A stretch of 64,000 nt of DNA from Chitinophagales bacterium (GCA_046329495.1 JAXLUO010000007.1:61749-125748); one strand, 5' to 3'. Positions 12,048 to 64,000 are shown, counted from the stretch's first letter. Numbers and translations are program-made. Notes: generated by a model not told the origin, from the sequence alone.

Positions 12048-12056
12048 GGGTTTAAA

Positions 12057-12074: not shown

Positions 12075-12475
12075 ATTTATTTCGTGAAAGCTAAAAATAA
12101 ATTTTTGGGGCATATTGTATTAAAAGTTGAAACATACATTTAAATGAATTTATTAGAAAGTTGTTAGAGGATTGACTTTTGGTATTGTGCTTGCTATATT
12201 TAAGCGACAGGAACAGTAAATAAGTGTAACGATAGCGTAACCCTCCTCGGGTTACAGTGGGCAGATACAGTGAATTGGACTAATCGTTACCTAAACAGGA
12301 ACGGGCGAAGTAGTAATTAAGTGTTGTGACATATAAAAATTGTATATGTTTTAAGACAAAAAACGTCTTTATAACTATACAAGAATCGAACGACTTTTTT
12401 TCCGAGAGGAGAAGTAATTGCTGCGCCGATGAAAATTTATTTGCCACACACCTGTAAGTTTTAAATACCCACTGA

Positions 12476-16222: not shown

Positions 16223-16266
16223 CAGTATACGTAAATCAATCATAACATCAATTAATAGATGAGTTC

Positions 16267-17058
16267 ATGAAACAGTTCTGCTCCCTCACATTGGTTTTGC
16301 TACTTGTTGGAATGGCAAATGCCCAAAATGTTGGTGTAGGAACCAACACCCCTGCGTCTAAATTAGATGTAAAAGGAAACTTAACCATTGGTAATACCTA
16401 CTCCGGCAATGCGGCACCTTCCAATGGTGCCATCATTCAAGGCCCTGTAGGTATAGGTACGCCTTCGCCCGATGGCAATGCCTTGCTGGACCTTACCGCC
16501 ACCGATAAAGGTTTGCTGTTACCGCGTGTGGCGCTGGTAAGTAATTCTAACCCTATTAGCGGTACCAAACCCGATGGTTTAATGGTTTACAATACCAGCA
16601 CTACCGGTACGTATTCCACACCGGGCGTTTATACCTGGAGCACTGCTGCCAACGATTGGGTACGCATTATCACAAACACCACCCTTAGCGGTTCCTTACA
16701 GCCATTAACCAATAGTGCAGGGGGCGGGTTGGCTACCTTTAGTTACAACGGCAGTGCCGCTACACAAATAGGTATTGCCAACCAGGGTGTGGTAACGGGT
16801 ATGATCGCCAACGATGCGGTTACTACTTCACAAATTGCCCCTAATACAATCACCAGTGCCGATATGGGCCCTAACTCGGTTGACCTTAGCAGCGGCGTGG
16901 TAACAAACGTGTTGCCTATCAACCGCGGTGGCACCAACACCAACAGCTTAGGCAGCGGTGGTAGCGTAGCTTACAGTAACGGCACCTCTTATGCATTTTC
17001 TCCGGTAGGCACTTCAGGCCAGGTATTGGTAAGTGGTGGCACCGGTCAGCCTACGTGG
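16267..17058 (+). repeat. 792-nt conserved 5' module, copy 2
   Basis: See copy 1. Synonymous differences are scattered through the module, so this is not a very recent duplication or an assembly artefact. Confidence 0.9.
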
Positions 17059-47511: not shown

Positions 47512-48789
47512 TTAAGGCACTTCAACGGTATTTTGAGCAGCAACAGGTGCAGTAGCAGTATCGGCAAACTCAGTACGGAAGGCCATGAACCAAAAAAGGC
47601 TTGCTACGCAATAGGCAGTAACGGCGGCAATAATGCTCAGCTCAGTAAAATGCTCCAGGCCGGTAACAGCGGCGGTTATCAAGACAATGCCGGCCAGCAG
47701 GCGCAGCGGCTCAAGCGGGAGGGCCCACTTACGCTTCTCAAAAATGGCCCCGAAGCTGGTAAGCGAAGCGATGATCCAGGTGCCGATGGCGGCCTTCAAA
47801 GCAAAGTGGTCGGTAACGGCTTTACCGCCCATCAATATCAAAAAGGCAGTGGTAGCCAGCAGCACTACCACAAACTGGGCAAACACATAATTGTTCAAGC
47901 CACTCGAAATTTCAGTATCGTATTTATGGAACGTCTTAACATTAACCGCAGGGTAGTCCAACATCCCGCCAAGTTCCTTCGGCTTCCAGCCCGGCATCTT
48001 GATATACATCTTAATAGCATCGCTTATCTTGCTAACCCGCAGCGAATCTTTAATCAGGTCAATCCAGTATTCAAAGTTCAGCCAGATGGGGTTCCAGCTT
48101 TTAGGCTGCGTGGTAATACCATACACCACTTCTTCCTGCTCGGGTTCAAAGGTGTTGAACAGGCGGTCCCAAATGATCATAGTGCCACCGTGGTTCTTAT
48201 CAATGTACTGCGGATTAACACCGTGGTGCACGCGGTGGTGCGAGGGTGTGTTGAACACATATTCAAACGGTCCCCACATTTTATCAATCATCTTGGTATG
48301 TATCCAAAACTGGTAAAGGGTATTGATGGACGCCATCAGGATAAACGATTCGGTGCTGAAACCAATAACCGCCAGCGGCAAATAAAACACCCAGCTAAAA
48401 GCCCCCTGCAGCCAGGCTTGGCGCAAGGCAACCGTAAGGTTGTATTCTTCGCTTTGGTGGTGCACCACATGGCTGCCCCACAACAACGAAATTTCATGTG
48501 CCAACCGGTGGAACCAGTAATAAAAGAAGTCGACACCAATAAACAGAAGCAGGAAGGTAAACGCATTGGTAGGTATGGTAAACAGCGCATAATGCTCAAA
48601 CAAATACTTGTACCCGAAAATGGTAGCCGTTTTAAGAAAGATACCCGCCACCTGCGAACCTATGCCGCAGCTAAGGTTGGTAATAGAGTCGTGGTAACGG
48701 TAATAGCTCAGTTGGCGCATTTTACCTATCAGCAACTCAAGGCCGATAAGCAGGAAAAACACCGGTATGGCAAAAACGATGAGGCTCAT
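47512..48789 (-). CDS. Fatty acid hydroxylase / sterol desaturase superfamily protein with an extra C-terminal multi-TM domain
   Basis: His boxes FHRLAHE, HVVHHQSEE and HHRVHH. The C-terminal ~150 aa is hydrophobic. The stop is 9 nt upstream of, and in frame with, the next hydroxylase gene. Confidence 0.85.
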   Translation of the reverse strand: MSLIVFAIPVFFLLIGLELLIGKMRQLSYYRYHDSITNLSCGIGSQVAGIFLKTATIFGYKYLFEHYALFTIPTNAFTFLLLFIGVDFFYYWFHRLAHEISLLWGSHVVHHQSEEYNLTVALRQAWLQGAFSWVFYLPLAVIGFSTESFILMASINTLYQFWIHTKMIDKMWGPFEYVFNTPSHHRVHHGVNPQYIDKNHGGTMIIWDRLFNTFEPEQEEVVYGITTQPKSWNPIWLNFEYWIDLIKDSLRVSKISDAIKMYIKMPGWKPKELGGMLDYPAVNVKTFHKYDTEISSGLNNYVFAQFVVVLLATTAFLILMGGKAVTDHFALKAAIGTWIIASLTSFGAIFEKRKWALPLEPLRLLAGIVLITAAVTGLEHFTELSIIAAVTAYCVASLFWFMAFRTEFADTATAPVAAQNTVEVP

Positions 48790-48923
48790 TTTTGTGGATT
48801 TATGGTTCTAAGGTAATCACTTTATATAGAAACAGGGCGGGCGTTAACGCCTCTTTGGTATTTCAAAAAGATGATTCTCCTCACCCAAACATTTTTAATT
48901 TCATTAACTAAACAATTGCCCCT

Positions 48924-49559
48924 TTGAAACCCTTCTACCGCGACCATCAGTTTTGGAGCTTGTTGGCCATCAACATTATCATTATCATCTATTACTTCTA
49001 CTACCATACCAGTTTTAAAACCCTGGTATGGGTGTACTGGAGCCAAAGCATAGTAATAGGCGTGTTTAACTTCCTGCACCTGGTAACAATCGAAAACATA
49101 GTTCCCGGCTCTATTGAAATGAATAAGGAAAAGGTGAAAACACCGGGACAGGTAATAGGTTGTATTGGCCCGTTTTTCGCCTTTCATTATGGGTTCTTTC
49201 ACCTGGTATATCTGGTATTCCTTTTTAGTATCACCGATGCAAACGAAAAATTGGATTATCACTTGCTGCAGGTAGCCGTAGGTACCCTGGTGCTCGATCA
49301 GTTGTGGAATTTTATCCGCCTGCGCGAATACGAGAAAACACACCCTGCTAATGTAGGGGTGCTGTTCTTTTTACCTTACCTGCGCGTGGTGCCAATGCAC
49401 CTTACAATCATATTGCCGGCATTTATTGGTATTTCCAGCATGGTGTTATTCCTTTTTCTTAAAACAGGTGCCGATTTGCTGGGCTATATTATAACACGGG
49501 CTATTTATGGCAAGGATTCCGACGTGTCAGTAACCGCCCCTGGTGATGTTATCTCCTGA
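48924..49559 (+). CDS. Hypothetical polytopic membrane protein
   Basis: 211-aa ORF with a TTG start and 5-6 hydrophobic helices. I prefer it over the overlapping minus-strand ORF 48822..49343, which has no membrane or domain logic. Confidence 0.5.
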   Translation: MKPFYRDHQFWSLLAINIIIIIYYFYYHTSFKTLVWVYWSQSIVIGVFNFLHLVTIENIVPGSIEMNKEKVKTPGQVIGCIGPFFAFHYGFFHLVYLVFLFSITDANEKLDYHLLQVAVGTLVLDQLWNFIRLREYEKTHPANVGVLFFLPYLRVVPMHLTIILPAFIGISSMVLFLFLKTGADLLGYIITRAIYGKDSDVSVTAPGDVIS

Positions 49560-49600
49560 AATTTGGAAGTTTAAACAGTATATCGTAATATTGCGATTAA

Positions 49601-49924
49601 ATGGGAGCAAGTAAAGCAGAGGAGTTTACCGTAAAGGACAACCGCATCGCCCGGTATGCCAAAGCATTGGCACATCCGGCAAGGGTGGCTATCCTGAAGC
49701 TGTTACTGCGTAAACAAAGTTGTATTTGCGGCGATATTGTAGACGAATTGCCGCTATCACAAAGCACTATATCGCAACATTTAAAGGAATTGAAAGCAGC
49801 GGGCTTAATTAAAGGTGATATTGAAGGCGCAAAGGTTTGCTATTGTATTGATGAAGAGGAATGGAATGCCGCCAAAGCCTGTGTAAATGAACTGTTGAGC
49901 ATGATGCCTGCAAAGTGCTGCTGA
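49601..49924 (+). CDS. arsR: ArsR/SmtB-family metalloregulator
   Basis: Winged HTH (LAHPARVAILKLL...CICGDIVDELPLSQSTISQHLKELKAAGLI) with a Cys-rich metal site and a C-terminal CC. Confidence 0.85.
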   Translation: MGASKAEEFTVKDNRIARYAKALAHPARVAILKLLLRKQSCICGDIVDELPLSQSTISQHLKELKAAGLIKGDIEGAKVCYCIDEEEWNAAKACVNELLSMMPAKCC

Positions 49925-49980
49925 TTTTTTTTGCCTGGATTAATCGTAATATACCGATAATAAAATTTAAATCATGTCTT

Positions 49981-50817
49981 ATGCAAACCGATAACGAATT
50001 AAAAGAGCTGGTAAAACAGAAATACAGTGAAATTGCTCTACAGGACAAAGCCACCAATCAATCTTCGTGTTGCGGCGCCGGTGGATGTTCTACCGAGGTG
50101 TACAACATTATGAGTGATAACTACGACCAACTGAAAGGCTATAACCCCGATGCCGACCTGGGCCTGGGTTGCGGCTTGCCTACGCAGTTTGCGCGTATTA
50201 AGGAAGGCGACACCGTAATTGATTTAGGCAGTGGTGCAGGCAACGATTGCTTTGTAGCCCGTGCCGAAACCGGTGCAAGCGGCAAGGTTATCGGTATTGA
50301 TTTTACGCCGGCCATGATTGAGAAGGCCCGTGCTAATGCCGAAAAGCTGGGCTTTAATAATGTGGAGTTTCGCCAGGGCGATATTGAGCATATGCCCGTA
50401 ACTGCTAATACTGCGAACGTGGTAGTAAGTAATTGCGTGTTGAACCTGGTACCAAATAAAGCCAATGTGTTTGCCGAAATTCATCGCGTTATGAAACCGG
50501 GCGGACATTTCAGCATTTCGGATGTAGTGCTGGTAGGTGAACTACCCGAAAGCCTGCGAAAGGATGCCGAGATGTATGCAGGTTGTGTGGCCGGTGCCAT
50601 TCAAAAGCAGGAATACCTGCGCCTGATAAAGGAGAATGGTTTCGTAAATGTACAGATTCAAAAAGAAAAGGCTATTGTAGTTCCCGATGATATATTAAGT
50701 AAGTATCTTAACCCACATCAACTGCAGGAGTTTAAAGCCGGTAATACAGGTATATTCAGTATTACGGTTTATGCTGAAAAACTTGCTCCTTGTTGCGGAC
50801 CCGATTGTTGCTCATGA
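49981..50817 (+). CDS. arsM: Arsenite S-adenosylmethionine methyltransferase
   Basis: VKQKYSEIA...SCCG, SAM motif VIDLGSGAGND, and conserved Cys residues including the C-terminal CCGPDCC. The start is taken at MQTDNELK. Confidence 0.8.
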   Translation: MQTDNELKELVKQKYSEIALQDKATNQSSCCGAGGCSTEVYNIMSDNYDQLKGYNPDADLGLGCGLPTQFARIKEGDTVIDLGSGAGNDCFVARAETGASGKVIGIDFTPAMIEKARANAEKLGFNNVEFRQGDIEHMPVTANTANVVVSNCVLNLVPNKANVFAEIHRVMKPGGHFSISDVVLVGELPESLRKDAEMYAGCVAGAIQKQEYLRLIKENGFVNVQIQKEKAIVVPDDILSKYLNPHQLQEFKAGNTGIFSITVYAEKLAPCCGPDCCS

Positions 50818-51209
50818 GAAAGAACGTAGTATTTGTTTGCATCGAAAACAGTAACCGCAGTCAAATGGCGCAGGCCTTTGCACGTATGTATGGGGCCGGT
50901 AAGGTAGAAGCATACAGTGCCGGTTCTCGTCCTTCGGGTAAAATAAACCCGAAGGCCGAGGCCGCCATGCAGGAACTCGGTTACGATCTTACTACACACG
51001 ATTCTAAAGGATTAGACCAACTACCCGATGTTACGTTTGAATATGCCATTACCATGGGCTGCGGCGATGAGTGTCCGTTTTTAAAAGCCGTCCACCGCGA
51101 AGATTGGGCCATCCCCGATCCCCGTAATATGGAACCGGAAGAGTTTAATGAAGTAAGAGATCAGATAAAGGAAAAGGTTTTGCAGTTGCTCAAGGGTATT
51201 GAGATTTAG
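50814..51209 (+). CDS. arsC: Arsenate reductase, LMW-PTPase type
   Basis: P-loop VVFVCIENSNRSQMA and downstream Cys residues (GCGDECP). ATGA start/stop overlap with arsM. Confidence 0.85.
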   Translation: MRKNVVFVCIENSNRSQMAQAFARMYGAGKVEAYSAGSRPSGKINPKAEAAMQELGYDLTTHDSKGLDQLPDVTFEYAITMGCGDECPFLKAVHREDWAIPDPRNMEPEEFNEVRDQIKEKVLQLLKGIEI

Positions 51210-51267
51210 AGCCAAATACCTATTTGATTTTTTTATAATCCTATTTTATCTGTGGCAATGTATTGTA

Positions 51268-52326
51268 CTATTGAAGTGTTGAATCAATTACCTGCCTCAG
51301 CCGTTGATAGTAGTAATAATGACCTTCATTATTCAAATGGCCATCTGGATAATCATTGAATAAAGCTTTATGATTATTCAGCATTAACCAGTAATCCTTT
51401 AGCGACGGATCGTTCAGCAGGTCGCTGTATTTATCGCGGTAGCTGTTGCCCTCTATATCGGCTTCTTTTACTTCTGGTATCAACAGCAATCGCAAGGGAA
51501 CATGGTTAGCGGCACAGGTTGCGGCAATAGCACGCAGGTGTTTTTTAGTTATGTCGGTGTGCTTGCGTAATCGTTCATAGTCTATCTTCTCCCGCACCCG
51601 GAAGGTAGCCGCATACAAGCGGGAGAGGAGGGCACTCTTGTTAATCACCCCTTGCCACCAGTGCGGAGGGTTAACCAGGTAGTAGCGTTCGTTCACTAAA
51701 TAGTTATAAGCAACCTGTGCCGTGTTGTAATGGTGTCCGTCCATATCGGCAAGTACGGCACCGGCATTGGTCCAGTAATAAAAGGCTTGATGTGGTGCTA
51801 CGGTTCGGTCTTCTTTCATCAGGTCGTTGCCCATAAAAAAGGCAACCACTACCATGTTGGGTTTCAATTGCGGAACATAGGTGGTAGCTATAGCCGCATA
51901 TTGCGCGGGGTCAGCCGCCGGTATGCCTGTATTGATGATTTCGTAGTTAGTGTTCTTCTGCAATAGATCGCAGAAGGAGCTATCAAAGAAGGGCTTGGCG
52001 CTCATGCCCCAGGTAAAGCTATCACCAATAAACAGTATCTTCTTTTTGTTACTGTCCAGTTGGTTTAGCGGCTTGCTGCGGAAGCCATCAGGATTAATAC
52101 AAAGCCCGTAAGCGTCCCAATAGGTGCTGTCGGCCACCAGTAAACCCTTGTCGTTTGTATAGAAGTCATTTATAACATAAAGTGAATCCACCGGCTGAAA
52201 GTGCAGCCAGTTAGGCCTTAGGTCGCCGGGCTTGTAGCCCATAAAGCGTAGCACCAGTTCAAGCAGTAAACAGGCCACCACCAAAAAGCTGAACTGAAAG
52301 AGGAGTCGCTTTTTGCCTTCGCTCAT
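51268..52326 (-). CDS. Membrane-anchored SGNH/GDSL-like hydrolase
   Basis: N-terminal TM anchor, block I ILFIGDSFTWGMS, block III FFMGNDL and block V DGHLNNEGH. The start is taken at MSEGKKRLL. Confidence 0.7.
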   Translation of the reverse strand: MSEGKKRLLFQFSFLVVACLLLELVLRFMGYKPGDLRPNWLHFQPVDSLYVINDFYTNDKGLLVADSTYWDAYGLCINPDGFRSKPLNQLDSNKKKILFIGDSFTWGMSAKPFFDSSFCDLLQKNTNYEIINTGIPAADPAQYAAIATTYVPQLKPNMVVVAFFMGNDLMKEDRTVAPHQAFYYWTNAGAVLADMDGHHYNTAQVAYNYLVNERYYLVNPPHWWQGVINKSALLSRLYAATFRVREKIDYERLRKHTDITKKHLRAIAATCAANHVPLRLLLIPEVKEADIEGNSYRDKYSDLLNDPSLKDYWLMLNNHKALFNDYPDGHLNNEGHYYYYQRLRQVIDSTLQ

Positions 52327-52328
52327 TG

Positions 52329-53516
52329 CTAAAAGGTGCTGCCTATTTTCTCTACATAATCCCAAATGTCCCAACCCTTCAATCCAAAGTTATGGTAGAT
52401 ATGTGCAAGCGCCGGTTTGGTTTTAGTGCGGAAGGCATCATCGCTGAAGTTCCCTTCAGTATCCATCATCAACCGGTTGTTGTTATAGTCGGCAATAAAG
52501 TTGAACTTCTTCGAGAGCGGTTGCTGCTGCTGCAAGCCAAACTCCCATACGGTGGCAATCAGCGTGCCCTGGTCGCGTGTCCGCCATTCAGGGTAGGTAA
52601 ATACCTTCATGGTCTTATCAAACCAGGCATCCAAAAAAGCATGACTGTCATCGCCAAACAAAAACACACCGCCATTCCAATGGTGGAAGTTCTTATCTGT
52701 AACCTTAATACCAAAACGGTTATTAATGTATTCTGGCAAATGATGGCACTCCAGGTCATAAACGTCCCTTCCATCCGGACCATACCAACGGCGCTTCAGG
52801 TAATTCCAACGCCATTTGCTGTGCTTCTCAATATCCTTCACCATGCTCTCGGCAGGTGTAATAATCACATTACCTTCTTTATCGTGCCACACCTTTTTCC
52901 AACGGTGGTAGTAGGTATCATCGTCCAGCTTAAATCGGTTAAGGGTGGTTAAAAAACGGAACGATATCCAGGCATATTGAAGTTTGTTCTTCTTCATCAG
53001 TTCAAACTTCTTTATCAGGTCTTTCTTCTTCTGCTCCATTACCGGCGATACGGCTTTGCGTCCGGGGTCGTATTGCGCCATCAGGCCTTCCAGTTCGGCA
53101 ATGTCCTTCTTGTTTTCTTCCAGGCAATTGCAACGCACCGCACTCGGGCTAAACTTGGGCATGCGGCAATGGTCGTGCGCAAAAGTGATAGGGCCGTGCT
53201 TGTGTTTAAAGATGTCGTCGCATTCGGTACTCAGTGCAACAACATCGGTATCCAGGTAACAATAGTTAAAGCCTTTGGGTAAAAACTTATGGATACCCAC
53301 CTTAAGGTAAATACTGGCCTGGTGGTTATCGAAGTGTTCAGGTGCTTTTACATCCACCACGTTATCGTGCTCTACTGCAATCTCGTTGCGGCTGCTATCG
53401 GTAATAACAACTATATCGTTCTTTGAAAAATGCTTTAGGTAGCGCAGACTATAATGCAGCGTATCCAGATGTTCGCGGGCACCGCAAACCACAAAAACAA
53501 ACTTATTGGCACTCAT
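52329..53516 (-). CDS. Putative GT-A-fold glycosyltransferase-like protein with a large Cys-containing, basic insertion
   Basis: Rossmann-like start (FVFVVCGAREH), DxD-like YLDTDVV, and a later HWNGGVFLF segment like the NxG(V/F) motif of GT8-type enzymes. The central ~130 aa is unrelated and highly charged. Confidence 0.5.
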   Translation of the reverse strand: MSANKFVFVVCGAREHLDTLHYSLRYLKHFSKNDIVVITDSSRNEIAVEHDNVVDVKAPEHFDNHQASIYLKVGIHKFLPKGFNYCYLDTDVVALSTECDDIFKHKHGPITFAHDHCRMPKFSPSAVRCNCLEENKKDIAELEGLMAQYDPGRKAVSPVMEQKKKDLIKKFELMKKNKLQYAWISFRFLTTLNRFKLDDDTYYHRWKKVWHDKEGNVIITPAESMVKDIEKHSKWRWNYLKRRWYGPDGRDVYDLECHHLPEYINNRFGIKVTDKNFHHWNGGVFLFGDDSHAFLDAWFDKTMKVFTYPEWRTRDQGTLIATVWEFGLQQQQPLSKKFNFIADYNNNRLMMDTEGNFSDDAFRTKTKPALAHIYHNFGLKGWDIWDYVEKIGSTF

Positions 53517-53573
53517 CAGCTAATTGGCAGTGGGTAATGTTAAGGCTTTTAGGCTATTGATAAAAGGGAACAA

Positions 53574-54989
53574 TTAAGTAATGTTATTACGGGCCATTAC
53601 CAATAGTACGCTCAGCGGCAGTTTTTCTAACTGAAAAGTTATCACATCCAGCAGAAATGGATTATCAAGGTCAAAGCGGTGGACGTTTTGTTTAAAGAAT
53701 TCTTCGCCTAAGGTGCCACGCAATTCACGCAGTTTGCCCACCACCTTCTCGCGGCGCTTGGCGCGCACCTCTTCTTTCGACGCCTTATCCTGTATAATGT
53801 GTTCCGAAATGATGTTTTCTAAATCCTCCCAGGTATCAATCTTTCGGCGACGCAGGTCTTTAAAGCTATCGTCGTGCCACTTCTTTATCTGGTTGTAAAT
53901 GCCCAGGTAGTGTTGCTTGTTCTTGCGTTGTAGTTCGGTTTCTTCCGGAAAGGTAAAACCGCCCAGGTAGTCTACTATCTCTTTAATGGCATCCTGTTCC
54001 AGGTTACGTATGCTGCATTGTGTAGGGAACAACACCGTATGGAAATAAACGGGGCACTCCATATCGTTGCAGAACTTAATGAAGTCGGGCAGCTCGCGCC
54101 AATTTTGCTGCATGGCACACATACTGATACCAAAGAAGGTGCCGCGCTGTTTGGTATATTCACGCAACCACTTAATGTTCTCCATGGTGCGTTCAAACAC
54201 AGCGTTCTTGCGTATCTCCTCATACGTCTCCTTCTGCAGCGAATCGAAGGAGATATTGATATGGAAGTTGGTATTCTCTAATATGCGCTTAACGCGGTTG
54301 TTTAAAGTAGTGGCATTGGTTTGCACAGATATGCGGACTGATGGATTCAACTCCATTATCTTTTCCCATATCTCATAGTAAATCTCAATCAGGAAAGGTT
54401 CGCCGCCATAGAATTTCACCTCTTCCAGGTAAGGGATAAACTCTTCCAACTGCTTTACAAACTCAGCGTCATAGGGTATTTCAAGCGGTGGCAGTTTCTC
54501 GCGCTTCGTGCGTATCAGCGAACTAAACTCGCCATTGCACATCTCGCATTCCAGGTTGCAGAGGTTGCTTAGCTCAAACTCCATAACGCTTGGGTAGCGG
54601 TTGGCGTTGGCTTTGTTCAAATCGTATTGCTTAGCCTTTACCCCATCAAAGTTGGCCGCTACCAGTTGTTGCTTGCAGCCCAGGCAACCCAGGCTAAAGT
54701 CGTCATGTTTAATATAGTCACGCAGTTTGTCAGCTTCTTCACCAAACCAAATCTCTTTAATGCTGCGTTTAGGATATTCGCCTAATATATAGGTACGGTT
54801 GTAGCAGCAGGTGTGGGCCCGGCCATGGTGGCCAAAGTACATACTGCGGAAGGGCGCATAGCATACCAGCGGCTGGGCCCCCATGGGCCGGCTGTTATTG
54901 TAAGCGCTAAGTATTTCGGGGTGAAGGGGGTTATAACTGTCCTTCTTAAACAGGTTTTTCAGCGAAAACATCGGGGCTAAGATAAGCAT
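53574..54989 (-). CDS. Radical SAM enzyme with an N-terminal SPASM/twitch-like Cys motif and a charged helical C-terminal extension
   Basis: CxxxCxxC at ELSNLCNLECEMCNGE, and a GGEPF SAM-binding motif. The N-terminal segment CYAPFRSMYFGHHGRAHTCCYN...IWFGEEADKLR...LGCLGC looks like a SPASM auxiliary-cluster motif placed before the core. Confidence 0.8.
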   Translation of the reverse strand: MLILAPMFSLKNLFKKDSYNPLHPEILSAYNNSRPMGAQPLVCYAPFRSMYFGHHGRAHTCCYNRTYILGEYPKRSIKEIWFGEEADKLRDYIKHDDFSLGCLGCKQQLVAANFDGVKAKQYDLNKANANRYPSVMEFELSNLCNLECEMCNGEFSSLIRTKREKLPPLEIPYDAEFVKQLEEFIPYLEEVKFYGGEPFLIEIYYEIWEKIMELNPSVRISVQTNATTLNNRVKRILENTNFHINISFDSLQKETYEEIRKNAVFERTMENIKWLREYTKQRGTFFGISMCAMQQNWRELPDFIKFCNDMECPVYFHTVLFPTQCSIRNLEQDAIKEIVDYLGGFTFPEETELQRKNKQHYLGIYNQIKKWHDDSFKDLRRRKIDTWEDLENIISEHIIQDKASKEEVRAKRREKVVGKLRELRGTLGEEFFKQNVHRFDLDNPFLLDVITFQLEKLPLSVLLVMARNNIT

Positions 54990-55151
54990 TACCCTGTACT
55001 ATAGGCCATTTGGTAGGCAGGCAATCCGGCTTTTGGTCCGGGGAGGCCCAAACCGCCGCCGGGTACGGTTTTTCCCCAAAAATTAAGCGTTTTCACCTTT
55101 CCCTAATTGCCCATTTCTGTTATGTTTGCGGCCGATTTTGAAAAGGCTGCC

Positions 55152-56562
<1,411 letters not shown>

Positions 56563-56577
56563 GAAGCCGAAACTTTA

Positions 56578-56617
56578 AACAGGCAGCAAAAGCGGTTGGC
56601 TGCGCTGCCTGTTTTTC
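56578..56617 (+). terminator. Intra-operon stem-loop/attenuator after atpE
   Basis: Perfect 10-bp stem AACAGGCAGC...GCTGCCTGTT followed by TTTTT. It sits between atpE and atpF. Confidence 0.5.
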
Positions 56618-56677
56618 CCCTTAAAAGGGAATGATGTTGATTGAATTGATTAAAATAGAACCAGTAAATAAAGCAAT

Positions 56678-57172
56678 ATGCAATTAGTACAACCGGCGCT
56701 TGGTCTCCTCTTTTGGATGGTAATCGTTTTCGGCCTTTTGATGTTCATCCTCACAAAGTTTGCCTGGAAACCGATTTTAGGTATGATTCAGGAGCGCGAG
56801 AAAACTATTGAAGATAACCTGAACGAAGCCAACAAGGCCCGCCAGGAAATGAGTCAGTTAGTAGCTAAGAACGAAGAGTTACTGAACCAGGCTAAGGAAG
56901 AGCGCAACAAAATATTACACGAAGCCCGCGAAGCTGCCGAGAAAGTGAAGAACGATATCGTGGAGCGCGCCAACAAGGAAGCGGAAGAAAAATTGAAGCA
57001 AGCCCTTCGCGAAATCGAAAACCAAAAGATGGCTGCTATTACTGAAGTGAAGAACTCAGTGGGCAAAATGGCTTTGGATATCGCTGAAAAAGTGATCCGT
57101 CGCGACCTGAATACCAGTGCCGAACATACCGAGTATGTAAACAAGCTGGCTAAAGAAACCAACCTGAATTAA
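56678..57172 (+). CDS. atpF: F0F1 ATP synthase subunit b
   Basis: N-terminal TM helix followed by a long charged helix (KPILGMIQEREKTIEDNLNEA...). Confidence 0.9.
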   Translation: MQLVQPALGLLFWMVIVFGLLMFILTKFAWKPILGMIQEREKTIEDNLNEANKARQEMSQLVAKNEELLNQAKEERNKILHEAREAAEKVKNDIVERANKEAEEKLKQALREIENQKMAAITEVKNSVGKMALDIAEKVIRRDLNTSAEHTEYVNKLAKETNLN

Positions 57173-57194
57173 TAAGCAGTAATCTGTTATAAAG

Positions 57195-57755
57195 ATGAGT
57201 TCATACCGTTTAGCACACCGATACGCAAAGTCGTTACTGACGCTGGCCCAGGAAAAAGGCAAGTTGAACGACGTAAATGCCGATTTCCGCCTGGTGGACG
57301 CCGCCCTGGAAAGCAGCAGCGAACTGCGTGCTTTTTTCAAGAGCCCTATCATTGCTTCTGATAAGAAGTTGATTGTGGCCAAGAAGTTGTTTGAAGGCAA
57401 AACCAGTGAAATAGTTTACAACTTCCTGGTGCTGCTTATCAAAAAGGGCCGCGAAGCTTTCATTCACGATATTGCCAACTCGTTCATCGAACAATACAAC
57501 ACCGTTTCAGGAATTACACCGGTAACCTTTACCAGTGCTGTTAAACTGGATGCTGCACAAGTATCACAGATCATCAACTCGCTGAAGGCTAAGGAAAACC
57601 TGAAGACAATCGAATTAACCGAAGTTATCGAACCTGCTTTGATAGGTGGTTTCGTATTGCAATACGGTGATAAGATGATTGACGCCAGCATCAAAAATCA
57701 ATTACACGGCTTCCGTAAGATCGTTGAAGATGATTCTTATATCAAGAAATACTAG
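57195..57755 (+). CDS. atpH: F0F1 ATP synthase subunit delta (OSCP)
   Basis: RLAHRYAKSLLTLAQEKGKL... and the C-terminal GGFVLQYGDKMIDASIKNQL. Confidence 0.9.
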   Translation: MSSYRLAHRYAKSLLTLAQEKGKLNDVNADFRLVDAALESSSELRAFFKSPIIASDKKLIVAKKLFEGKTSEIVYNFLVLLIKKGREAFIHDIANSFIEQYNTVSGITPVTFTSAVKLDAAQVSQIINSLKAKENLKTIELTEVIEPALIGGFVLQYGDKMIDASIKNQLHGFRKIVEDDSYIKKY

Positions 57756-57775
57756 AGAGCTACTACTCCAAATTT

Positions 57776-57806
57776 TAAAAAGCCCGCTATGCGGGCTTTA
57801 TTTTTT
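57776..57806. terminator. Bidirectional terminator after atpH, overlapping the stop of the convergent gene
   Basis: AAAAAGCCCGC-tat-GCGGGCTTTATTTTTT. Confidence 0.8.
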
Positions 57807-58655
57807 GCGTGGCTTATTGAAATAATCTTGCGAATGCCTTTTGCGGAAAAGTAGCAGTAGTTTAGAACGTTTCCTTTTAACGTGCGGATCTTCCACTACC
57901 TGCGCTACCATACCCAGAACAGTAGTGATTGTTTGTGTTACTCTGGTCGATACTATTTCTGCTGCCGGCAATAAGTTGGTAGTATCTCTATAAATACTGA
58001 TAGGTCCTGCAAAAGCCAATCTATCAATATGCATAGTAGTATCTATAATACGCGCCCCTTCAGTATTGTCCTTCGTTTTTTGCGCTTCTGTTGGGCTAAT
58101 ATTAACTTCTCTTTCTAACCAGGATGCAGGAAGTAAAAATTCAAACTCCCCTTTTTCGTTTGTCATACAGGTAAAATCGGTATCGCTAATACAAATAGTC
58201 GCTCCTGCAACCGGCGTGTTACTTCCCCGGTCATAAACCGCTCCCTGAATGGCGATAGTGCTATCAGCCTTTGGAGTGGAGTGATTGGTACTATCACTTT
58301 TAGTTCCGGTAACAACAATTTGGGTATCGCTTGGTTTGGAAGCGCTTAGCTGGTTCCATGCGGTAGAAAAGAACAAGAATGCTGCGGCTGCTTTTTCAAA
58401 AAGCAAAGAACGCTTTGGTCTACTTGTTTCAGGAAGTATGGATCTGTCTAACTGATTTTTGCGGAAGCGACCGCAATGTAGGCTGCCGGCTTGCATAAGG
58501 GCGATTAACTCCGTATCGGTTAGGCTGGTGTAGTCTTGTATCACTCGGTTGCACATAGCGCAATGGCGTCCTTGCGCTTCGGGAGTCATCTGCTCCCAAT
58601 CCTGGGTACAGGGCTCAGGAATACTTAATAAATAGTGTTTTTGCCGGTTATGCAT
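57798..58655 (-). CDS. Cys-rich N-terminal motif plus CarboxypepD_reg-like domain protein
   Basis: IPEPCTQDWEQM...GRHCAMCNRVIQDYT...LHCGRF, then IQGAVYDRGSNTPVAGATICI...TNEKGEFEF. Confidence 0.65.
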   Translation of the reverse strand: MHNRQKHYLLSIPEPCTQDWEQMTPEAQGRHCAMCNRVIQDYTSLTDTELIALMQAGSLHCGRFRKNQLDRSILPETSRPKRSLLFEKAAAAFLFFSTAWNQLSASKPSDTQIVVTGTKSDSTNHSTPKADSTIAIQGAVYDRGSNTPVAGATICISDTDFTCMTNEKGEFEFLLPASWLEREVNISPTEAQKTKDNTEGARIIDTTMHIDRLAFAGPISIYRDTTNLLPAAEIVSTRVTQTITTVLGMVAQVVEDPHVKRKRSKLLLLFRKRHSQDYFNKPRKK

Positions 58656-58716
58656 AAAACTAATTTAAACATTAAGGGATTACCTTCTTTCTATCTGAGC
58701 CTTTTGTTACAAAACG

Positions 58717-59685
58717 ATGACAATGGCAGGGGTTTTTAATGGTCGCTTAAACTGCCCGGAAATTGATTTAATTTGGAACGTGAACCATTTCTGCACCATT
58801 ACAACGGCCAGTCACCTATATAAAGTATATGCATTGGCTGAGTCGTTGCAACAATTTGGTGAATGCACCCTGCATGTATTGGTAGTGGATGCCGGGCAGC
58901 AACCTGCTTTTAACGGATGCCGGTTTTATGGCTTGCAGGAAATTGCCGGAACCCCGGTGGCCCAAACCATCATTGCTAAATACAAAGGCAACAGCAACAA
59001 ACTGCGCTGGAGTTTAAAGCCCGTGATGTTGCAATGGTTGCTGAAGCAAAAAGCTATTGACCGGGTTATTTACCTCGATAATGACCTCTTCTTTTATTCG
59101 GCCTGGCAGTTTATGTTCGAGTTGCTTCAAACACATTCACTACTGCTAACTCCCCATTATTACAAGCACGACCCTACGCGTGAACAGAACTGGTTTGAAG
59201 CCAACTTCCGTGTAGGTTTATATAATGCAGGTTTTGTAGGTGCCAGTCGCCAGGCAACCGGTACATTACAGTGGTGGGCCGAAAGTTGCGCTTATCGTTG
59301 CGAAAAGAACGCCTGGCGCGGTTTGTTCGACGACCAAAAATATCTGGACCTGGTGCCGGTTATGGAGGAAAAGGCCCATGTGCTTCGCCATAAGGGTTGT
59401 AATGTGGCGGGCTGGAATCAGGAACTTTGCCCACGCATTAAAAGTGGAAACGACGTGCTCATTGATGGCAAGTTCCCGGTGGTATTTATTCACTTTAACA
59501 ACTACACAATAAGCGAATTACTGAATGGTACCGATAGCTTGCTGGTACCCCATTATGAAAGGTACGAGGCTGTGCTTAAAAAGCACAAACCGGCATTACA
59601 ACGCAGCGAGTTGTTCTCGCCACAACCTTTCAGCGATAAGCTTAAATTCACCCTTTGGAAAATTGCCACTGACCTGGGATTGTAA
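58717..59685 (+). CDS. Putative GT-A-fold nucleotide-sugar glycosyltransferase
   Basis: FCTITTASHLYKVYAL, DxD-like VIYLDNDLFFY, LYNAGFVGA, and DQKYLDL...GCNVAGWN. There is a 3-nt gap to the next gene. Confidence 0.55.
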   Translation: MTMAGVFNGRLNCPEIDLIWNVNHFCTITTASHLYKVYALAESLQQFGECTLHVLVVDAGQQPAFNGCRFYGLQEIAGTPVAQTIIAKYKGNSNKLRWSLKPVMLQWLLKQKAIDRVIYLDNDLFFYSAWQFMFELLQTHSLLLTPHYYKHDPTREQNWFEANFRVGLYNAGFVGASRQATGTLQWWAESCAYRCEKNAWRGLFDDQKYLDLVPVMEEKAHVLRHKGCNVAGWNQELCPRIKSGNDVLIDGKFPVVFIHFNNYTISELLNGTDSLLVPHYERYEAVLKKHKPALQRSELFSPQPFSDKLKFTLWKIATDLGL

Positions 59686-59688
59686 ACT

Positions 59689-62580
59689 ATGGCCAAACAG
59701 AAGATAGAAAAGCAGGTTGCGCCTGCAAAGCCAAAGGCTGTTGTAGAAAAGAAGGATATACGCCGGTTCTTTCCTTTAATTGTGTTTGGTTTTAGCACGC
59801 TCATCTATTTTAACTCCATACTGAATAATTACAGCATGGACGATGAGCTGGTTACACAAAATCACCGATTAACCAGTAAAGGTATTAGCGCCATCCCTGA
59901 AATTTTCCGCTCGCCGTATTATGAGGACCGCGCCGGTTACAAATACGAGTATCGTCCTCTGGTATTAGTAACCTTTGCTATTGAGCACAGCATATTTGGC
60001 GATAACCCCCATGTAAGTCACTTTATAAATGTTTTGTTGTATGGCTTGCTGTGTTTGGTATTGTTCAATCTGCTGAAACTGTTATTCGCTTCCTACGATG
60101 TAACTTTTGCTTTGCTTGTTACCCTGGTATTTGCGGCGCACCCTACTCATACCGAAGTGGTAGCCAGCATAAAAAACCGTGATGAAATCTTGGCGCTCTT
60201 GTTTGGTTTATTCAGCTTGAGCTATGCCTGGCAATTTGCAAAGGATGGTGCGTGGTGGAAGCTATTGCTCGTGCCTGTCATGCTGCTGCTGGGTATTCTG
60301 GCTAAATCAACCACCATCACCTTTGCAATTTTAATTCCACTTACGGTAATTCTACTGGGCCAGGTAACTGCGTTGCGTTTATTTTTAATAACGCTGGTAC
60401 TGGTGCTTCCTTCGGTATTCTACTCCCGCTTGTATTCGGTAACACAACAGCTATTGTTTGTAGCAGCCATTTTTGTCGCTGTGTTTGTTCTATATCTGTT
60501 ACGCCATGGGTTTAATTGGCAAGCAGTTAAACAGGCTGCAGGTAATGCCGGTAACAGCGGGCAGAAGGATGTAGCCGAGCAAAAGCTTGACTTCTCTTTA
60601 TTAAAGAGTCCCTTAGTGGCTGTATCCTTCTTTGTAAGCGTAGTAGTTGTGCTGGCCGTTGCATTAACAGGGCTTTCCATGGGCAATATGTGGTTGGCGG
60701 TAATACCGGCATTTGTATTAGTGGCTACCTTTGTTGCAGCAAAAACCGAATTACGGTTCTTTCTCATTTTGCCAATAACCATTGTGGTAAGCTATATGGC
60801 GGTGCGCTTTCAGGCTAATACAATGGCGGTTGAAGCAATGTTGATTGCTTTTCTAATGGCACAATACCTGCAAGGCAACAAACAACTAAAAACTATGGCT
60901 ATCGGCAGCTATCTGTTTTACACGCTGATGGTAGTTGTGCTGAAACATTCTTTTTTTCCTGCCGCTGTACTGCTGTTTGCAATGTTTATTAACCGGCGCC
61001 TATGGCCATTAACTGCAGCCCTATCGGTAGCAGCCCTTGGTTTTTTAGCGATTAAGATCCTGGCAATTGCTAAAGGTTCACAAGTAATCAATATTAGTTT
61101 GGCCTCAACGCCGGTATTGTTATTGAGTATTCTTCTATTGTGGAAAGCAAAGTCATCCATACAAACATTGGCAACCGTAATTGCATTACCCGTTCTGTTG
61201 CTGGTATACTTTATGGTGGCCCCTCCCTCGTTTAATAATGATGTGGTTTCGGGTGTTCAACGCACCTACTATCAATTAAACACCACCAAAGCAGCAGATC
61301 TTAATCCTGTTAAATCGGTTCGCCCTCTTTATTATATCGAAAACCCGGTTACATCTTCCGACCCCTTGCGCCTGCGTATAGGCATTGCAATGGTAGCGCT
61401 CGGTCAGTATCTGAAAATGATGCTGGTGCCGTATCCAATGAGTTTCTACTACGGCTATGCTTACTTTAAACCAACCGATGTGTTGCAGGCTGGACCGTTA
61501 ATCGTACTGTTCATACATATAATGCTGTTTTTGGCGGCATTTGTGCTCATCCGGCGGTTACCCTTAATTAGCTATTGTATCTTCTTTTATCTGGCTTCCA
61601 TTTTTGTTTTTAGTAACCTTATCATTCCGGTTCCGGGTGTTTTTGGCGATCGTTTTCTATTAATTCCTTCTATAGCCTTTGCAATAGCTTTGGTATATGG
61701 GGCTTACAAATTATTTAAGCACCCGTTAGAACAGCCTGTTGTATTCAAGGGTAATTATGCGCGTCCGTTACAAGTAAGCATAGAAGTACTGCTGGCAGCC
61801 TATATGTTGCTTACAGTTTCACGTAACAGCGATTGGAAGGATCATCTTACACTTTTCAGGCACGATATTGAAGTGGTGGGCAATTCAGCCCAGGCACAAA
61901 ACCTGTTGGCCGTGCACTTATTTAAAAATGCTACCGAGAGCACCGATATCAATGTTAAGTTCGATCTGCTGAATCAGGCCAGCGAACATTTTAAACGGGC
62001 TATAGAGATTTATCCGCAATTCCTGAATGCTAATTATGACCTTGGCCGTAGTTATTATGCCATAGCCAGTTTGTATAGCTATCAAAAGAATACCACGAAG
62101 GCCTCGCAATTTGCCGATATGGCTTATACGCAATATGCAAAGACCTTACAGATAGATTCCACTTTTGTCGTTCCCAGCTTCGAGATGGGCGTTATTATGG
62201 ATAATAAGGGCAACCTGCAACAAGCCATCGCGGACTATGAACGTTTTCTGAGTAAGATCAAAACCCAAAAAGAAGCCTACGCAAATCTTAGTTATGTGTA
62301 TTTCCGTTTAGGAGATTACGAAAACGCAATCCGAACAAACCAGCGTTTATTGCTGGTAATGCCTAACACGTACGAGCCTACCGTGAACATTGCCAAAACA
62401 TACGTTAAAGCCGGGATCAGAGATAGCGCCATCATCTATTTCGAAAAGGCTTATGTGATCAATCAGAACGACCTGAATGTATTAAAAACACTCTACCAAC
62501 TTGCTGTTGAAGCAGGCGATTCCTATCGCGCTGGTCAGTACTTTATGAAGTTAAAGGAAAGAGGGATAAACGTTAAATAG
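59689..62580 (+). CDS. TMTC/PMT-like GT-C membrane glycosyltransferase with C-terminal TPR repeats
   Basis: More than 15 TM helices. The first loop carries an acidic motif (NYSMDDELV), followed by EYRPLVLVTFAIE and AHPTHTEVVASIKNRDEIL as in TMTC/DUF1736-type proteins. The C-terminal ~280 aa is TPR-like. Confidence 0.75.
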   Translation: MAKQKIEKQVAPAKPKAVVEKKDIRRFFPLIVFGFSTLIYFNSILNNYSMDDELVTQNHRLTSKGISAIPEIFRSPYYEDRAGYKYEYRPLVLVTFAIEHSIFGDNPHVSHFINVLLYGLLCLVLFNLLKLLFASYDVTFALLVTLVFAAHPTHTEVVASIKNRDEILALLFGLFSLSYAWQFAKDGAWWKLLLVPVMLLLGILAKSTTITFAILIPLTVILLGQVTALRLFLITLVLVLPSVFYSRLYSVTQQLLFVAAIFVAVFVLYLLRHGFNWQAVKQAAGNAGNSGQKDVAEQKLDFSLLKSPLVAVSFFVSVVVVLAVALTGLSMGNMWLAVIPAFVLVATFVAAKTELRFFLILPITIVVSYMAVRFQANTMAVEAMLIAFLMAQYLQGNKQLKTMAIGSYLFYTLMVVVLKHSFFPAAVLLFAMFINRRLWPLTAALSVAALGFLAIKILAIAKGSQVINISLASTPVLLLSILLLWKAKSSIQTLATVIALPVLLLVYFMVAPPSFNNDVVSGVQRTYYQLNTTKAADLNPVKSVRPLYYIENPVTSSDPLRLRIGIAMVALGQYLKMMLVPYPMSFYYGYAYFKPTDVLQAGPLIVLFIHIMLFLAAFVLIRRLPLISYCIFFYLASIFVFSNLIIPVPGVFGDRFLLIPSIAFAIALVYGAYKLFKHPLEQPVVFKGNYARPLQVSIEVLLAAYMLLTVSRNSDWKDHLTLFRHDIEVVGNSAQAQNLLAVHLFKNATESTDINVKFDLLNQASEHFKRAIEIYPQFLNANYDLGRSYYAIASLYSYQKNTTKASQFADMAYTQYAKTLQIDSTFVVPSFEMGVIMDNKGNLQQAIADYERFLSKIKTQKEAYANLSYVYFRLGDYENAIRTNQRLLLVMPNTYEPTVNIAKTYVKAGIRDSAIIYFEKAYVINQNDLNVLKTLYQLAVEAGDSYRAGQYFMKLKERGINVK

Positions 62581-63093
62581 TTTTTTGCCAATTTCTAATT
62601 AGAGTTTTAATTAAATATTATAATTATTGAAGCTCTAACTATTATTTAATCGACAAAAAAATACAGCTCCTGTATTGTAATTAGTTCGCTTAAAAGCCTG
62701 TTTGTTTCTTTTTTAGTAATATTTTTATCGCTTAAGCGATGAAATAGGCATTTAATGATGTTTTCGCATTATGGCATGTGCCTTGCTGCTTAATTGATAG
62801 TTGACAAGGAACCTTTGTTCAATTATTATTAAAGGAACTATTAAGATTAACTGCCGTTGAACCGACAGTTGAATCTATGAAAACCTGAACTGCAGATTGG
62901 AACCGTAACTGCAGGTAATTTAGAACATATAGCTAATACAGACGTTGGCATTTCCTGAATTAAATAGGGAATGAAGGCAAATGGCTGATTTCTTTTATTC
63001 CTGCGTAAAGGAATTGTTGGAGTTGGCATGCTCGTTAGTGAAAATTAAAGTAGTTTAATTAAAAACAATAATTAAAAAAACATTAAAAAGCAG

Positions 63094-63641
63094 ATGAAGA
63101 AGATCTTTACGCCACTTGTCTTTAAAGCAACTTTGCTGAGCCTGTTCGCTGCTTTTATTTCGCTTAGCACGTTTAGTCAGTGCCCGGGCTATTTTTCGGT
63201 AGCCACGGTTACTCCTCCCTGTGGTAGTTATGCTACCCGCACCTTTAATCCGGGGGGGTATTTGCTAACAAACGTAGTTACCGGTGCGTTAGTGCCATAC
63301 TTACCGGCGATGTAACGTTCGAAGTGTTGGACTTTGTTCCGAACCCTACTGCCAACCTAACCAATCTGCTTATTACCTCAAACGTTTCGCAGGAAGTGCG
63401 TGTAGAACTGTATAATCTGATTGGTGAGCGAATGCTGGATCGCAACGTCCTGTTAAACAAGGGCGGAAACAACGTGCCGTTTAATTTAAATGCTTTGGCA
63501 TCGGGCACGTATACAGCACTGGTGCATACCGGCAACGAAGTTCATACCCGAAAAGTTCTTGTACAAAGTAACCCTCCTTGTTCCCTATTAGCGAAGGCCG
63601 CATTGTATGCGGCCTTTTTTATGTTTTATTGGGCTTGTTAA
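63094..63641 (+). pseudogene. Frameshifted small T9SS cargo gene (signal peptide in frame 1, T9SS C-terminal domain in frame 3)
   Basis: ORF 63094..63315 encodes a signal peptide and a short Cys-containing segment, then stops. ORF 63324..63641 encodes a T9SS CTD-like sequence (FVPNPTANLTNLLITS...VELYNLIGERM...SGTYTALVHTGNEVHTRKVLVQ). One extra base anywhere in 63249-63315 joins them. The ORF also reads through its own terminator hairpin. Confidence 0.55.
63594..63621 (+). terminator. Rho-independent terminator
   Basis: AAGGCCGCA-ttgt-ATGCGGCCTT followed by TTTTTT. Confidence 0.75.
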
Positions 63642-63708
63642 GGGCTGTAAAGGCACTACGAACAACCAAAAATTCTATTAGGTTTGCCACTCCTCAAAAT
63701 CGGACCAC

Positions 63709-64000
63709 GTGAAGCTTTCGGTAATAATGCCGGTTTACAATGAAAAAAAGACCATCCGCGAGATAATTGCGAAGGTAATGGCTGTGCCTATTGAAATTGA
63801 ACTGGTTATTGTAGATGATGGTTCAACCGATGGTACACGCGATATTTTAAAGGAATACGAAGGCAAGCCTAATATTAAGGTGGTTTATCACCAGCAAAAC
63901 AAGGGCAAAACCGGTGCCATTAAAACCGGCATACCTTATACCACCGGCGAAATTATCAGCATTCAGGATGGTGATTTAGAAACCGACCCGAATGATTTTG
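63709..64000 (+). CDS. Family 2 glycosyltransferase (3' end outside the window)
   Basis: GTG start, then KLSVIMPVYNEKKTIREII...LVIVDDGSTDGT...SIQDGDLE. The frame is open to the window end, so it is absent from the ORF track. Confidence 0.85.
   Translation, partial: MKLSVIMPVYNEKKTIREIIAKVMAVPIEIELVIVDDGSTDGTRDILKEYEGKPNIKVVYHQQNKGKTGAIKTGIPYTTGEIISIQDGDLETDPNDF

Follow-up and report, generated by a model that had tools for sequence, protein, structure and literature searches.

A twitch-first radical SAM enzyme, a GT8-like protein, and an SGNH protein encoded side by side in a Chitinophagales genome, and their probable part in a surface-glycan pathway

What could a radical S-adenosylmethionine (rSAM) enzyme be doing beside two proteins that current annotation leaves without a name? 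This question is raised by positions 51268-54989, on the minus strand, of a 64,000-nt stretch of DNA (the window) from a Chitinophagales bacterium metagenome-assembled genome (MAG), where NCBI names three consecutive genes “radical SAM protein,” “hypothetical protein,” and “hypothetical protein.” Our analysis indicates that they encode an rSAM enzyme with an N-terminal twitch domain, a GT8-like protein predicted to be a glycosyltransferase, and what appears from its motifs to be an SGNH protein. These three genes are probably a co-transcribed sub-cluster that forms part of a cell-surface glycan assembly/tailoring pathway, of the O-antigen/exopolysaccharide-like type, a judgment that we make for co-transcription and pathway jointly. 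A carbohydrate substrate is favored over a peptide because of the glycan genes that neighbor these families in other genomes, the fusion of one rSAM relative to a GT4 glycosyltransferase, the exporter found in related loci, and the lack of a shared small open reading frame (ORF).

All three minus-strand ORFs are intact. The rSAM gene (53574-54989) encodes 471 aa and the GT8-like gene (52329-53516) encodes 395 aa, while the SGNH ORF spans 51268-52374 from a TTG start, or 352 aa when read from the ATG at 52326, which is where the ortholog begins in L001, another Chitinophagales MAG that shows the same synteny and served as the closest relative for comparison. The intergenic gaps, 57 nt between the rSAM and GT8-like genes and 2 nt between the GT8-like gene and the ATG at 52326, bear out the tight packing described in the original prediction, which was made from the sequence of the window alone. 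Since rSAM orthologs begin at Met7, the true rSAM start is probably at 54971 (465 aa). When compared with L001, the ratio of nonsynonymous to synonymous substitution rates (dN/dS) is 0.011 for the rSAM, 0.048 for the GT8-like, and 0.084 for the SGNH gene, next to 0.062 for the neighboring atpB, although these values are rough because dS is near saturation. All three genes are clearly under strong purifying selection. The G+C content of the region is unremarkable.

An rSAM enzyme with its twitch domain first

The rSAM protein (53574..54989, minus strand) matches two Pfam families, Radical_SAM (PF04055) over residues 140-306, with 69.6 bits for a cutoff of 29.5, and SPASM over residues 43-105, with 30.7 bits for a cutoff of 21.5. 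The partial TIM-barrel core (residues ~130-351; 53937..54602, minus strand) carries the CxxxCxxC motif as C144-x3-C148-x2-C151, where it had been predicted (~140-150), together with a GGEP motif at 195-198. A Foldseek search with the AF2 model (pLDDT 88.7, pTM 0.82) retrieves generic rSAM cores, i.e., SkfB, viperin, SuiB, MoaA, BlsE, DesII, and anSME. Ahead of the core lies a domain (residues ~36-125; 54615..54884, minus strand) that displays the pattern C43-YAPF...G56...C61-C62...I80-W81...C102-x2-C105 and is modeled as a β-hairpin (residues 49-59) followed by helices. Twitch and SPASM domains have been described as C-terminal extensions (PMC9012708). The order in the window protein is permuted, as had been proposed, and this order is already known, since the curated NCBIfam model NF033640 (N_Twi_rSAM), to which no function is assigned, is defined by it, a twitch domain likewise preceding the CxxxCxxC core. 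NF033640 is the best NCBIfam model for the protein (160.9 bits, E = 5e-47), which it matches nearly end to end (residues 42-393 on model positions 4-382 of 398). Because this score is under the cutoff of 170, NCBI calls the protein just “radical SAM protein.” Besides its sub-cutoff score, the protein differs from NF033640 by an extra helical tail of ~120 aa. When ten paralogs were tested, NF033640 was the best model for every one of them (82-176 bits), with two above the cutoff. Our literature searches returned no publication on the NF033640 family and nothing on N-terminal twitch/SPASM domains or on SPASM in connection with polysaccharide biosynthesis, while a search for “twitch domain-containing radical SAM” gave only general twitch papers.

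The number of auxiliary clusters expected in the N-terminal domain depends on its Cys residues. A full SPASM domain, with two auxiliary clusters, was defined by seven or eight Cys, among them those of CX2CX5CX3C and a distal one; a twitch domain, with one auxiliary cluster, by three or four Cys arranged as CX(n)GX4C ... CX2C on a β-hairpin plus a helix. The window protein displays the latter pattern (C43...G56x4C61...C102x2C105), and of its five N-terminal Cys, four are universally conserved, with no CX5CX3C continuation. A database search yielded 933 relatives. In a 32-sequence alignment, C43, C61, C62, C102, C105, C144, C148, C151, and C291 are invariant. In a wider count covering 177 distinct paralogs from ~100 loci, the core C144/C148/C151 are present in all 177, C43, C61, C102, and C105 are kept in 175-177, and C62 is kept in 123. 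When a profile of the family was searched against the PDB, the sole match (E = 1e-6) was BtrN (2-deoxy-scyllo-inosamine dehydrogenase; PDB 4M7T/4M7S), with residues 35-106 aligning to its C-terminal twitch domain and C43/C61/C102/C105 falling on its four Cys. In BtrN, which performs the two-electron oxidation of a carba-sugar, the auxiliary cluster has four Cys ligands (PMC9012708). From these Cys patterns, the N-terminal domain is best read as a one-cluster twitch, a candidate for a single auxiliary [4Fe-4S], and not as a two-cluster SPASM. The original prediction of a SPASM/twitch motif thus stands for the presence of an auxiliary-cluster domain but not for its SPASM-like nature. In view of the four-Cys alignment with BtrN, the possibility that the N-terminal motif binds no cluster, which would have spoken against that prediction, appears not to hold. 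The likeness to BtrN lies in the twitch domain, which is C-terminal in BtrN but N-terminal in the window protein, and the two cores match weakly (8 bits). Single-sequence PDB searches with the rSAM, GT8-like, and SGNH proteins gave nothing useful.

At its other end, the protein carries the highly charged helical tail that had been noticed in its sequence (residues 352-471; 53577..53936, minus strand), which is modeled as five helices (residues 352-468) and contains 37% charged residues, vs 25% in the remainder of the protein. The tail is found in orthologs with poor sequence conservation, and it is missing or different in distant paralogs. In L016:4880-7987 and P0127, the orthologous rSAM is present in two tandem copies, one of which (551 aa) has a duplicated helical tail.

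Relatives of the rSAM protein stand among glycan genes in other phyla as well. A Planctomycetota MAG (L142:7998-10556) encodes an 853-aa protein in which an N_Twi_rSAM (175.6 bits, above cutoff) is fused to an EpsE-like GT4, amid GT2/GT4/deacetylase genes. Just upstream of this fusion are a 288-aa rSAM ORF and then a separate 245-aa SPASM-only ORF. In an Acidobacteriota MAG (L125:1849-7713 and 7998-16425), three N-twitch rSAM genes have as neighbors three genes for large CBM_4_9-GDSL/SGNH fusion proteins; the rSAM-SGNH link therefore reaches beyond Bacteroidota. In Bacteroidales MAGs, there are up to eight rSAM copies per locus, in genes packed end to end. Arrays of five to eight N-twitch rSAM paralogs with overlapping stops and starts are seen in L136:3761-16579, L146, L149, L150, and L133 (Bacteroidales/Bacteroidota MAGs), and each of them ends beside one GT8-like gene, with GT2, AsnB, and transglutaminase-like genes before it. 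The same kind of locus also contains arrays of four to eight genes for PhyH, an Fe/2-oxoglutarate dioxygenase (e.g., L153, L082, L119, and L122). Loci with at least five rSAM copies (e.g., L136, L149, and L146) have no PhyH, and PhyH-rich loci have one or two rSAMs, but this exclusion pattern is a trend only, since the two co-occur in 24 loci. It hints that rSAM and PhyH arrays could be oxygen-independent and oxygen-dependent alternatives.

A GT8-like protein with an insert and a membrane-anchored SGNH protein

The second gene (52329..53516, minus strand) encodes a predicted GT8-like retaining glycosyltransferase, an assignment for which we rely on its fold, motifs, and relatives. The protein has no Pfam or NCBIfam family match, PF01501 (GT8) included; a weak, below-cutoff match to Pfam SIS at its N-terminus was discarded as generic Rossmann-like similarity. 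Its AF2 model (pLDDT 90.4) retrieves glycogenin, LARGE1, WbbM, UGGT, XXYLT1, and GlyE in Foldseek, with E-values of 3e-5 to 6e-4, and according to this model, the protein adopts a GT8 (GT-A) fold. GT8 enzymes bind metal and donor through DxD, NxGV, and HxxGxxKPW motifs. In the window protein, D89-T-D91 and N281-GGVFLF are ~190 residues apart, with D89xD91 and N281GGVF invariant, and the third motif reads H375-N-F-G378-L-K-G-W382, in which G378 and W382 are invariant and H375 is found in at least 90% of sequences. All three GT8 metal-ligand positions are therefore retained. A GT-A fold with DxD, NxGV, and HxxGxxKxW motifs is common to the window protein and to GT8 enzymes such as glycogenin, LgtC, the GT8 domain of WbbM, and the xylosyltransferase domain of LARGE1.

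In contrast to the solved GT8s, with which it has no detectable sequence match, the window protein has an insert of ~160 aa with a CxC...CxH pattern (residues ~117-275; 52692..53168, minus strand), delineated by the secondary structure of the model, invariant columns, and composition. The original prediction had recognized the DTD and NGGVFLF hallmarks and the Cys-containing, Lys/Arg-rich insert that splits them but had set the length of the latter at ~130 aa, which is too short. In the AF2 model, the insert sits between strand 110-114 and strand 280-287 and is built of three helices plus a small sheet. Rich in Trp and with 21% Lys/Arg, it includes Cys117, 129, 131, and 257. The invariant C129xC131 and C257xH259, which stand at opposite ends of the insert, are likely to form a structural zinc site; metal binding is what we infer from these conserved residues.

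A database search yielded 1013 GT8-like relatives (~1000 sequence clusters), almost all unnamed; annotators label members of this family “hypothetical.” A few of them carry PF01501, which was reached by 4 of the 30 relatives tested (best E 2.2e-5). Among species-representative genomes, there are 341 GT8-like loci, nearly all labeled Bacteroidota. A search of the family profile against the PDB gave only spurious matches to ACP and factor XIII. Judging from the modeled fold, the gene defines a sizeable glycosyltransferase family, a new GT8 variant, that is absent from current domain libraries. A second glycosyltransferase (GT) domain is fused to some relatives, as is the case in bifunctional O-antigen polymerases. 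Several 685-aa relatives are fused to PF04488, and relatives of 670-1080 aa are fused to a Gly_transf_sug (GT32-like) domain (P0039, P0041, P0044, and others; L071:7935-10001; L049:6738-9977).

The third protein (51268..52326, minus strand, from the ATG) is a predicted membrane-anchored SGNH/GDSL-type esterase or acyltransferase. In agreement with the original prediction of a membrane SGNH hydrolase, it combines a hydrophobic helix, a GDSL-family profile, and S103/H330. The predicted transmembrane anchor (residues 8-28; 52243..52305, minus strand) has a mean Kyte-Doolittle hydropathy of 2.52 at residue 8 in a 19-residue window, and an N-terminal hydrophobic segment is present in every one of the 28 family members examined. 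Across these 28 diverse sequences, G101, S103, and H330 are invariant. The protein shares with SGNH/GDSL carbohydrate esterases and O-acetyltransferases (PatB1 and AlgX) the GDS serine (G101-D-S103, reading GDSF), the block II Gly (G134), the block III GND (G166-N-D), and the C-terminal His (D328-G-H330). It differs from them in block V, which reads DxH and not DxxH, with an acid position that is D or N across the family, and in a long insert between blocks III and V. Lipase_GDSL_2 (PF13472) scores 25.5 bits on the window protein, below the cutoff of 32.9, which one paralog passes with 34.9. The family profile matches solved GDSL esterases (2e-11), PatB1 (4e-5), and AlgX (0.036). There is no MBOAT or AT3 partner in the locus. 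On the strength of these profiles and catalytic residues, we regard the third protein as a probable, divergent member of the SGNH superfamily.

The larger locus and its split in the window

To place the three genes in context, we used a map of gene families over 157 loci (140 non-overlapping), anchored on the GT8-like protein or on the rSAM. A recurrent gene order emerges, consisting of a GT32-like protein (Gly_transf_sug), an AsnB-type amidotransferase, an NAD-dependent epimerase (GalE/TviC-like), in some loci the rSAM and a transglutaminase-like lipoprotein, and then the GT8-like, SGNH, GT-A-like, and GT-C/TPR proteins, the last with tetratricopeptide repeats (TPR). Often upstream of this block are an ABC-2 permease and a Wzt/TagH-like ATPase (with a C-terminal extension), a methyltransferase, PhyH arrays (up to 8), a carbamoyltransferase, sulfotransferases, and P450s. 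A Wzm/Wzt-type exporter is present in 29 of the 140 related loci. ABC-2 permease, Wzt/TagH-like ATPase, multi-domain GTs, methyltransferase, AsnB, and epimerase are likewise found in Wzm/Wzt O-antigen, teichoic-acid, and S-layer-glycan loci. Tailoring arrays of rSAM and PhyH enzymes are not known as a feature of characterized glycan loci that depend on ABC transporters.

The three families co-localize in many of these genomes. Among 79 GT8-anchored loci, an N-twitch rSAM is present in 26, an SGNH relative in 43, and all three in 18; among 60 further loci anchored on the rSAM, 21 have a GT8-like gene and 19 an SGNH gene. The N-twitch rSAM gene is the immediate neighbor of 34 of 106 GT8-like genes, and many genomes repeat the order rSAM, GT8-like, SGNH, with junctions that are short or overlap. 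The GT8-like and SGNH genes are kept by all orthologs with at least 62% identity, about half of which also have the rSAM gene. A lack of co-localization elsewhere, which would have counted against the original prediction of a module, is thus contradicted by co-occurrence in many other genomes. What did not survive is the notion of a module of three genes. The wider block in relatives and its split in the window imply that the three genes are an inverted, displaced sub-cluster of a bigger locus. Moreover, L001 has a fourth gene inside, encoding a 428-aa transglutaminase-like lipoprotein (PF01841; L001:9428-10714), between the rSAM and GT8-like genes. The trio does not form a module by itself, nor is it obligate. 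The transglutaminase-like gene is variably present among orthologous loci, and the window has 57 nt in its place (53517-53573).

The rest of the block is represented in the window by two genes on the strand opposite to the trio, at a distance of 3.8 kb and on the far side of atpBEFH and of a 285-aa ORF; its upstream genes (GT32-like, AsnB, and epimerase) are not in the window. The first of the two (58780..59685, plus strand) encodes a 301-aa GT-A-like protein (family F4) whose gene lies directly after the SGNH gene in relatives. It has invariant DND, NAGF, and DDQxYLD motifs and no Pfam or NCBIfam match. Because it shows no detectable homology to the GT8-like protein (BLASTP and profile-profile), it cannot be used as an “uninterrupted” paralog to set the borders of the insert. 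The second (59689..62580, plus strand), named “tetratricopeptide repeat protein” by NCBI, encodes a 963-aa membrane GT-C-like (PMT_2) protein with C-terminal TPR (family F8). This protein is ~950 aa long in relatives, where its gene is the last of the block in 35 of 140 loci, and its PMT_2 match is weak (E = 0.0028, 18.3 bits, under the cutoff of 26.1), next to matches to TPR families. Its architecture, a PMT_2 membrane region plus TPR, recalls the eukaryotic TMTC/PMT protein O-mannosyltransferases. The same split by atpBEFH occurs in L001. The 285-aa ORF (57798-58655, minus strand), between atpH and the GT-A-like gene, has an N-terminal Cys-rich stretch and a CarboxypepD_reg-like domain; in L001, this interval measures 188 nt, and no ORF of at least 100 aa is called there. 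Downstream of the gene for the GT-C/TPR protein, where the window ends, 63712-63975 (plus strand) weakly matches a GT2 family of related loci (F29), and the glycan locus may extend further than the window does.

The genes that flank the trio are unrelated to it. On the left, arsR and the genes for an arsenite methyltransferase (ArsM-like, with Cys-rich ends) and an ArsC of the low-molecular-weight-phosphatase type (49601-51209, plus strand) converge on the SGNH gene, an arrangement also found in L001. On the right, atpB-E-F-H (55107-57755, plus strand) diverge from the trio; these four genes stand alone in the window, with no atpA/G/D/C after them. The rSAM gene and atpB have in common a divergent intergenic region (54990..55106), which is presumed to contain the promoter of the three-gene operon. 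A scan of 50900-55300 for sigma-70 promoters and terminators gave nothing beyond shuffled expectation, a search for repeats around the module gave no IS-like or long inverted repeats accounting for the rearrangement, and an Rfam scan of 48000-64000 gave no match.

A probable glycan pathway and its alternatives

How might these enzymes act on a glycan? In the cytoplasm, the GT8-like enzyme would transfer an α-linked hexose from a UDP-sugar, in a Mn2+-dependent reaction, onto a lipid-linked glycan, its basic, Trp-rich, Zn-clasped insert perhaps holding the acceptor or the membrane. The rSAM enzyme would abstract a hydrogen from a carbon of a sugar, either in the precursor or in the glycan as it grows. 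The radical formed on the substrate could then pass an electron to the four-Cys twitch cluster to yield a keto-sugar, as in BtrN, or take back a hydrogen from Cys291 to yield an epimer, in the manner of NeoN, which epimerizes by hydrogen return. After export, the membrane-anchored SGNH enzyme would add or remove an O-acyl group, and the downstream GT-A-like and GT-C/TPR proteins would finish or attach the glycan. A much more tentative proposal, which taken as a whole we find doubtful but worth stating, extends this to the entire family. N-terminal-twitch rSAMs would then be a large class of radical glycan-tailoring enzymes that perform BtrN- or NeoN-like oxidation/epimerization of surface-polysaccharide sugars. 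They would have diversified by tandem duplication, with up to eight paralogs beside one GT8-like gene, and would be oxygen-independent counterparts of the PhyH-type dioxygenase arrays, the GT8-like family with its Zn-clasped insert being their dedicated partner glycosyltransferase.

Several observations weigh against assigning the trio to a surface-glycan pathway. In contrast to Wzm/Wzt-type loci, the window has no initiating transferase, ligase, or exporter, nor does it contain nucleotide-sugar genes. The closest orthologs of the GT8-like and SGNH genes (77-79% identity) have no rSAM gene within 8 kb, so that the trio is not obligate. Cys291 is kept in 120 of the 177 rSAM paralogs, and we rejected it as a family-wide hydrogen-atom donor. 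The GT8 assignment is based on fold and motifs, with no PF01501 match and modest Foldseek E-values, and the charges that flank the SGNH anchor do not settle its membrane orientation. Our literature search found no description of this locus type, and since none of the three core families has a characterized member, what we propose for donor, acceptor, and radical chemistry is deduced throughout. Finally, KAS, PPTase, and P450 genes in some related loci would also fit a lipid product. A lipid product is the basis of one alternative, in which the GT8-like enzyme glycosylates a lipid via its basic insert, the rSAM alters the chain, and the SGNH enzyme acylates or deacylates it. Such tailoring of a glycolipid or membrane lipid would suit the basic, amphipathic-looking insert, the KAS II/III, PPTase, and P450 genes, and the appearance of GDGT-MAS and HpnH among weak rSAM matches. 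However, the lipid genes are sporadic. It is nucleotide-sugar enzymes, several GTs, and a Wzt/TagH-like exporter that recur as conserved partners, and fusions join SGNH relatives to carbohydrate-binding modules and an rSAM relative to a GT4. We therefore consider this alternative unlikely. Somewhat less improbable, though still not expected, is protein O-glycosylation, in which the TPR-bearing GT-C would move the glycan onto periplasmic or surface proteins, while the rSAM, GT8-like, and SGNH enzymes make and trim it. In its favor, the block ends in a conserved protein that combines GT-C (PMT_2) with TPR, and Ser/Thr-rich lipoproteins (family F21) and transglutaminase-like lipoproteins recur in the loci. 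In Firmicutes, S-layer proteins receive glycans that depend on an ABC exporter. Set against this are the weak, sub-cutoff PMT_2 match and the lack of a target protein conserved across loci, F21 being found in only 9. Nothing directly applicable was found in the literature on a TPR O-oligosaccharyltransferase of Bacteroidetes. Protein O-glycosylation is compatible with a surface-glycan pathway, of which it is a variant and not an exclusive alternative.

Maturation of a ribosomally synthesized and post-translationally modified peptide (RiPP), whereby the twitch rSAM would cross-link or epimerize a ribosomal peptide prior to glycosylation and export, comes to mind because many SPASM/twitch rSAMs are peptide maturases, to several of which the window protein has weak NCBIfam matches. 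In addition, related loci have transglutaminase-like and Asn-synthase-like genes, as lasso-peptide clusters do. Nevertheless, the original prediction had already preferred the tailoring of a glycan or lipid over a RiPP because the window leaves no space for a precursor, and the wider survey also speaks against a RiPP. The window has no conserved small ORF, no small-ORF family is common to the 14 rSAM-array loci in which a precursor peptide was sought, Pfam and NCBIfam scans detect no RRE/PqqD-like domain in the rSAM, the Asn synthase of related loci retains the glutamine-amidotransferase Cys1 and passes the AsnB model, the neighbors encode glycan enzymes, and the ABC exporter is of the polysaccharide type. 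A RiPP is thus very unlikely. We give even less credence to a chance juxtaposition, with three unrelated functions left together by the rearrangement that split the locus. Although the block is indeed split by atpBEFH in the window genome and its closest relative, and the trio is not universal, the same gene order with short or overlapping junctions in many genomes and the strong purifying selection on all three genes are hard to reconcile with it.

A surface-glycan pathway therefore remains our preferred reading, and it gives the N-terminal-twitch family a context. Gene order, the GT4 fusion, and the association across phyla tie this family to glycan biosynthesis and not to peptide maturation, which offers a concrete place to look for the substrate of these enzymes. 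Together with its conserved flanks, the trio would mark an uncharacterized, highly decorated surface-glycan pathway that is frequent among environmental Bacteroidota, above all Chitinophagales, Flavobacteriales, and Bacteroidales, whose susceptibility to phages, resistance to grazing, and aggregation are shaped by surface glycans. The leads that we regard as most worthwhile are the link between N-twitch rSAMs and glycan genes across phyla and the arrays in which as many as eight paralogs stand in tandem.

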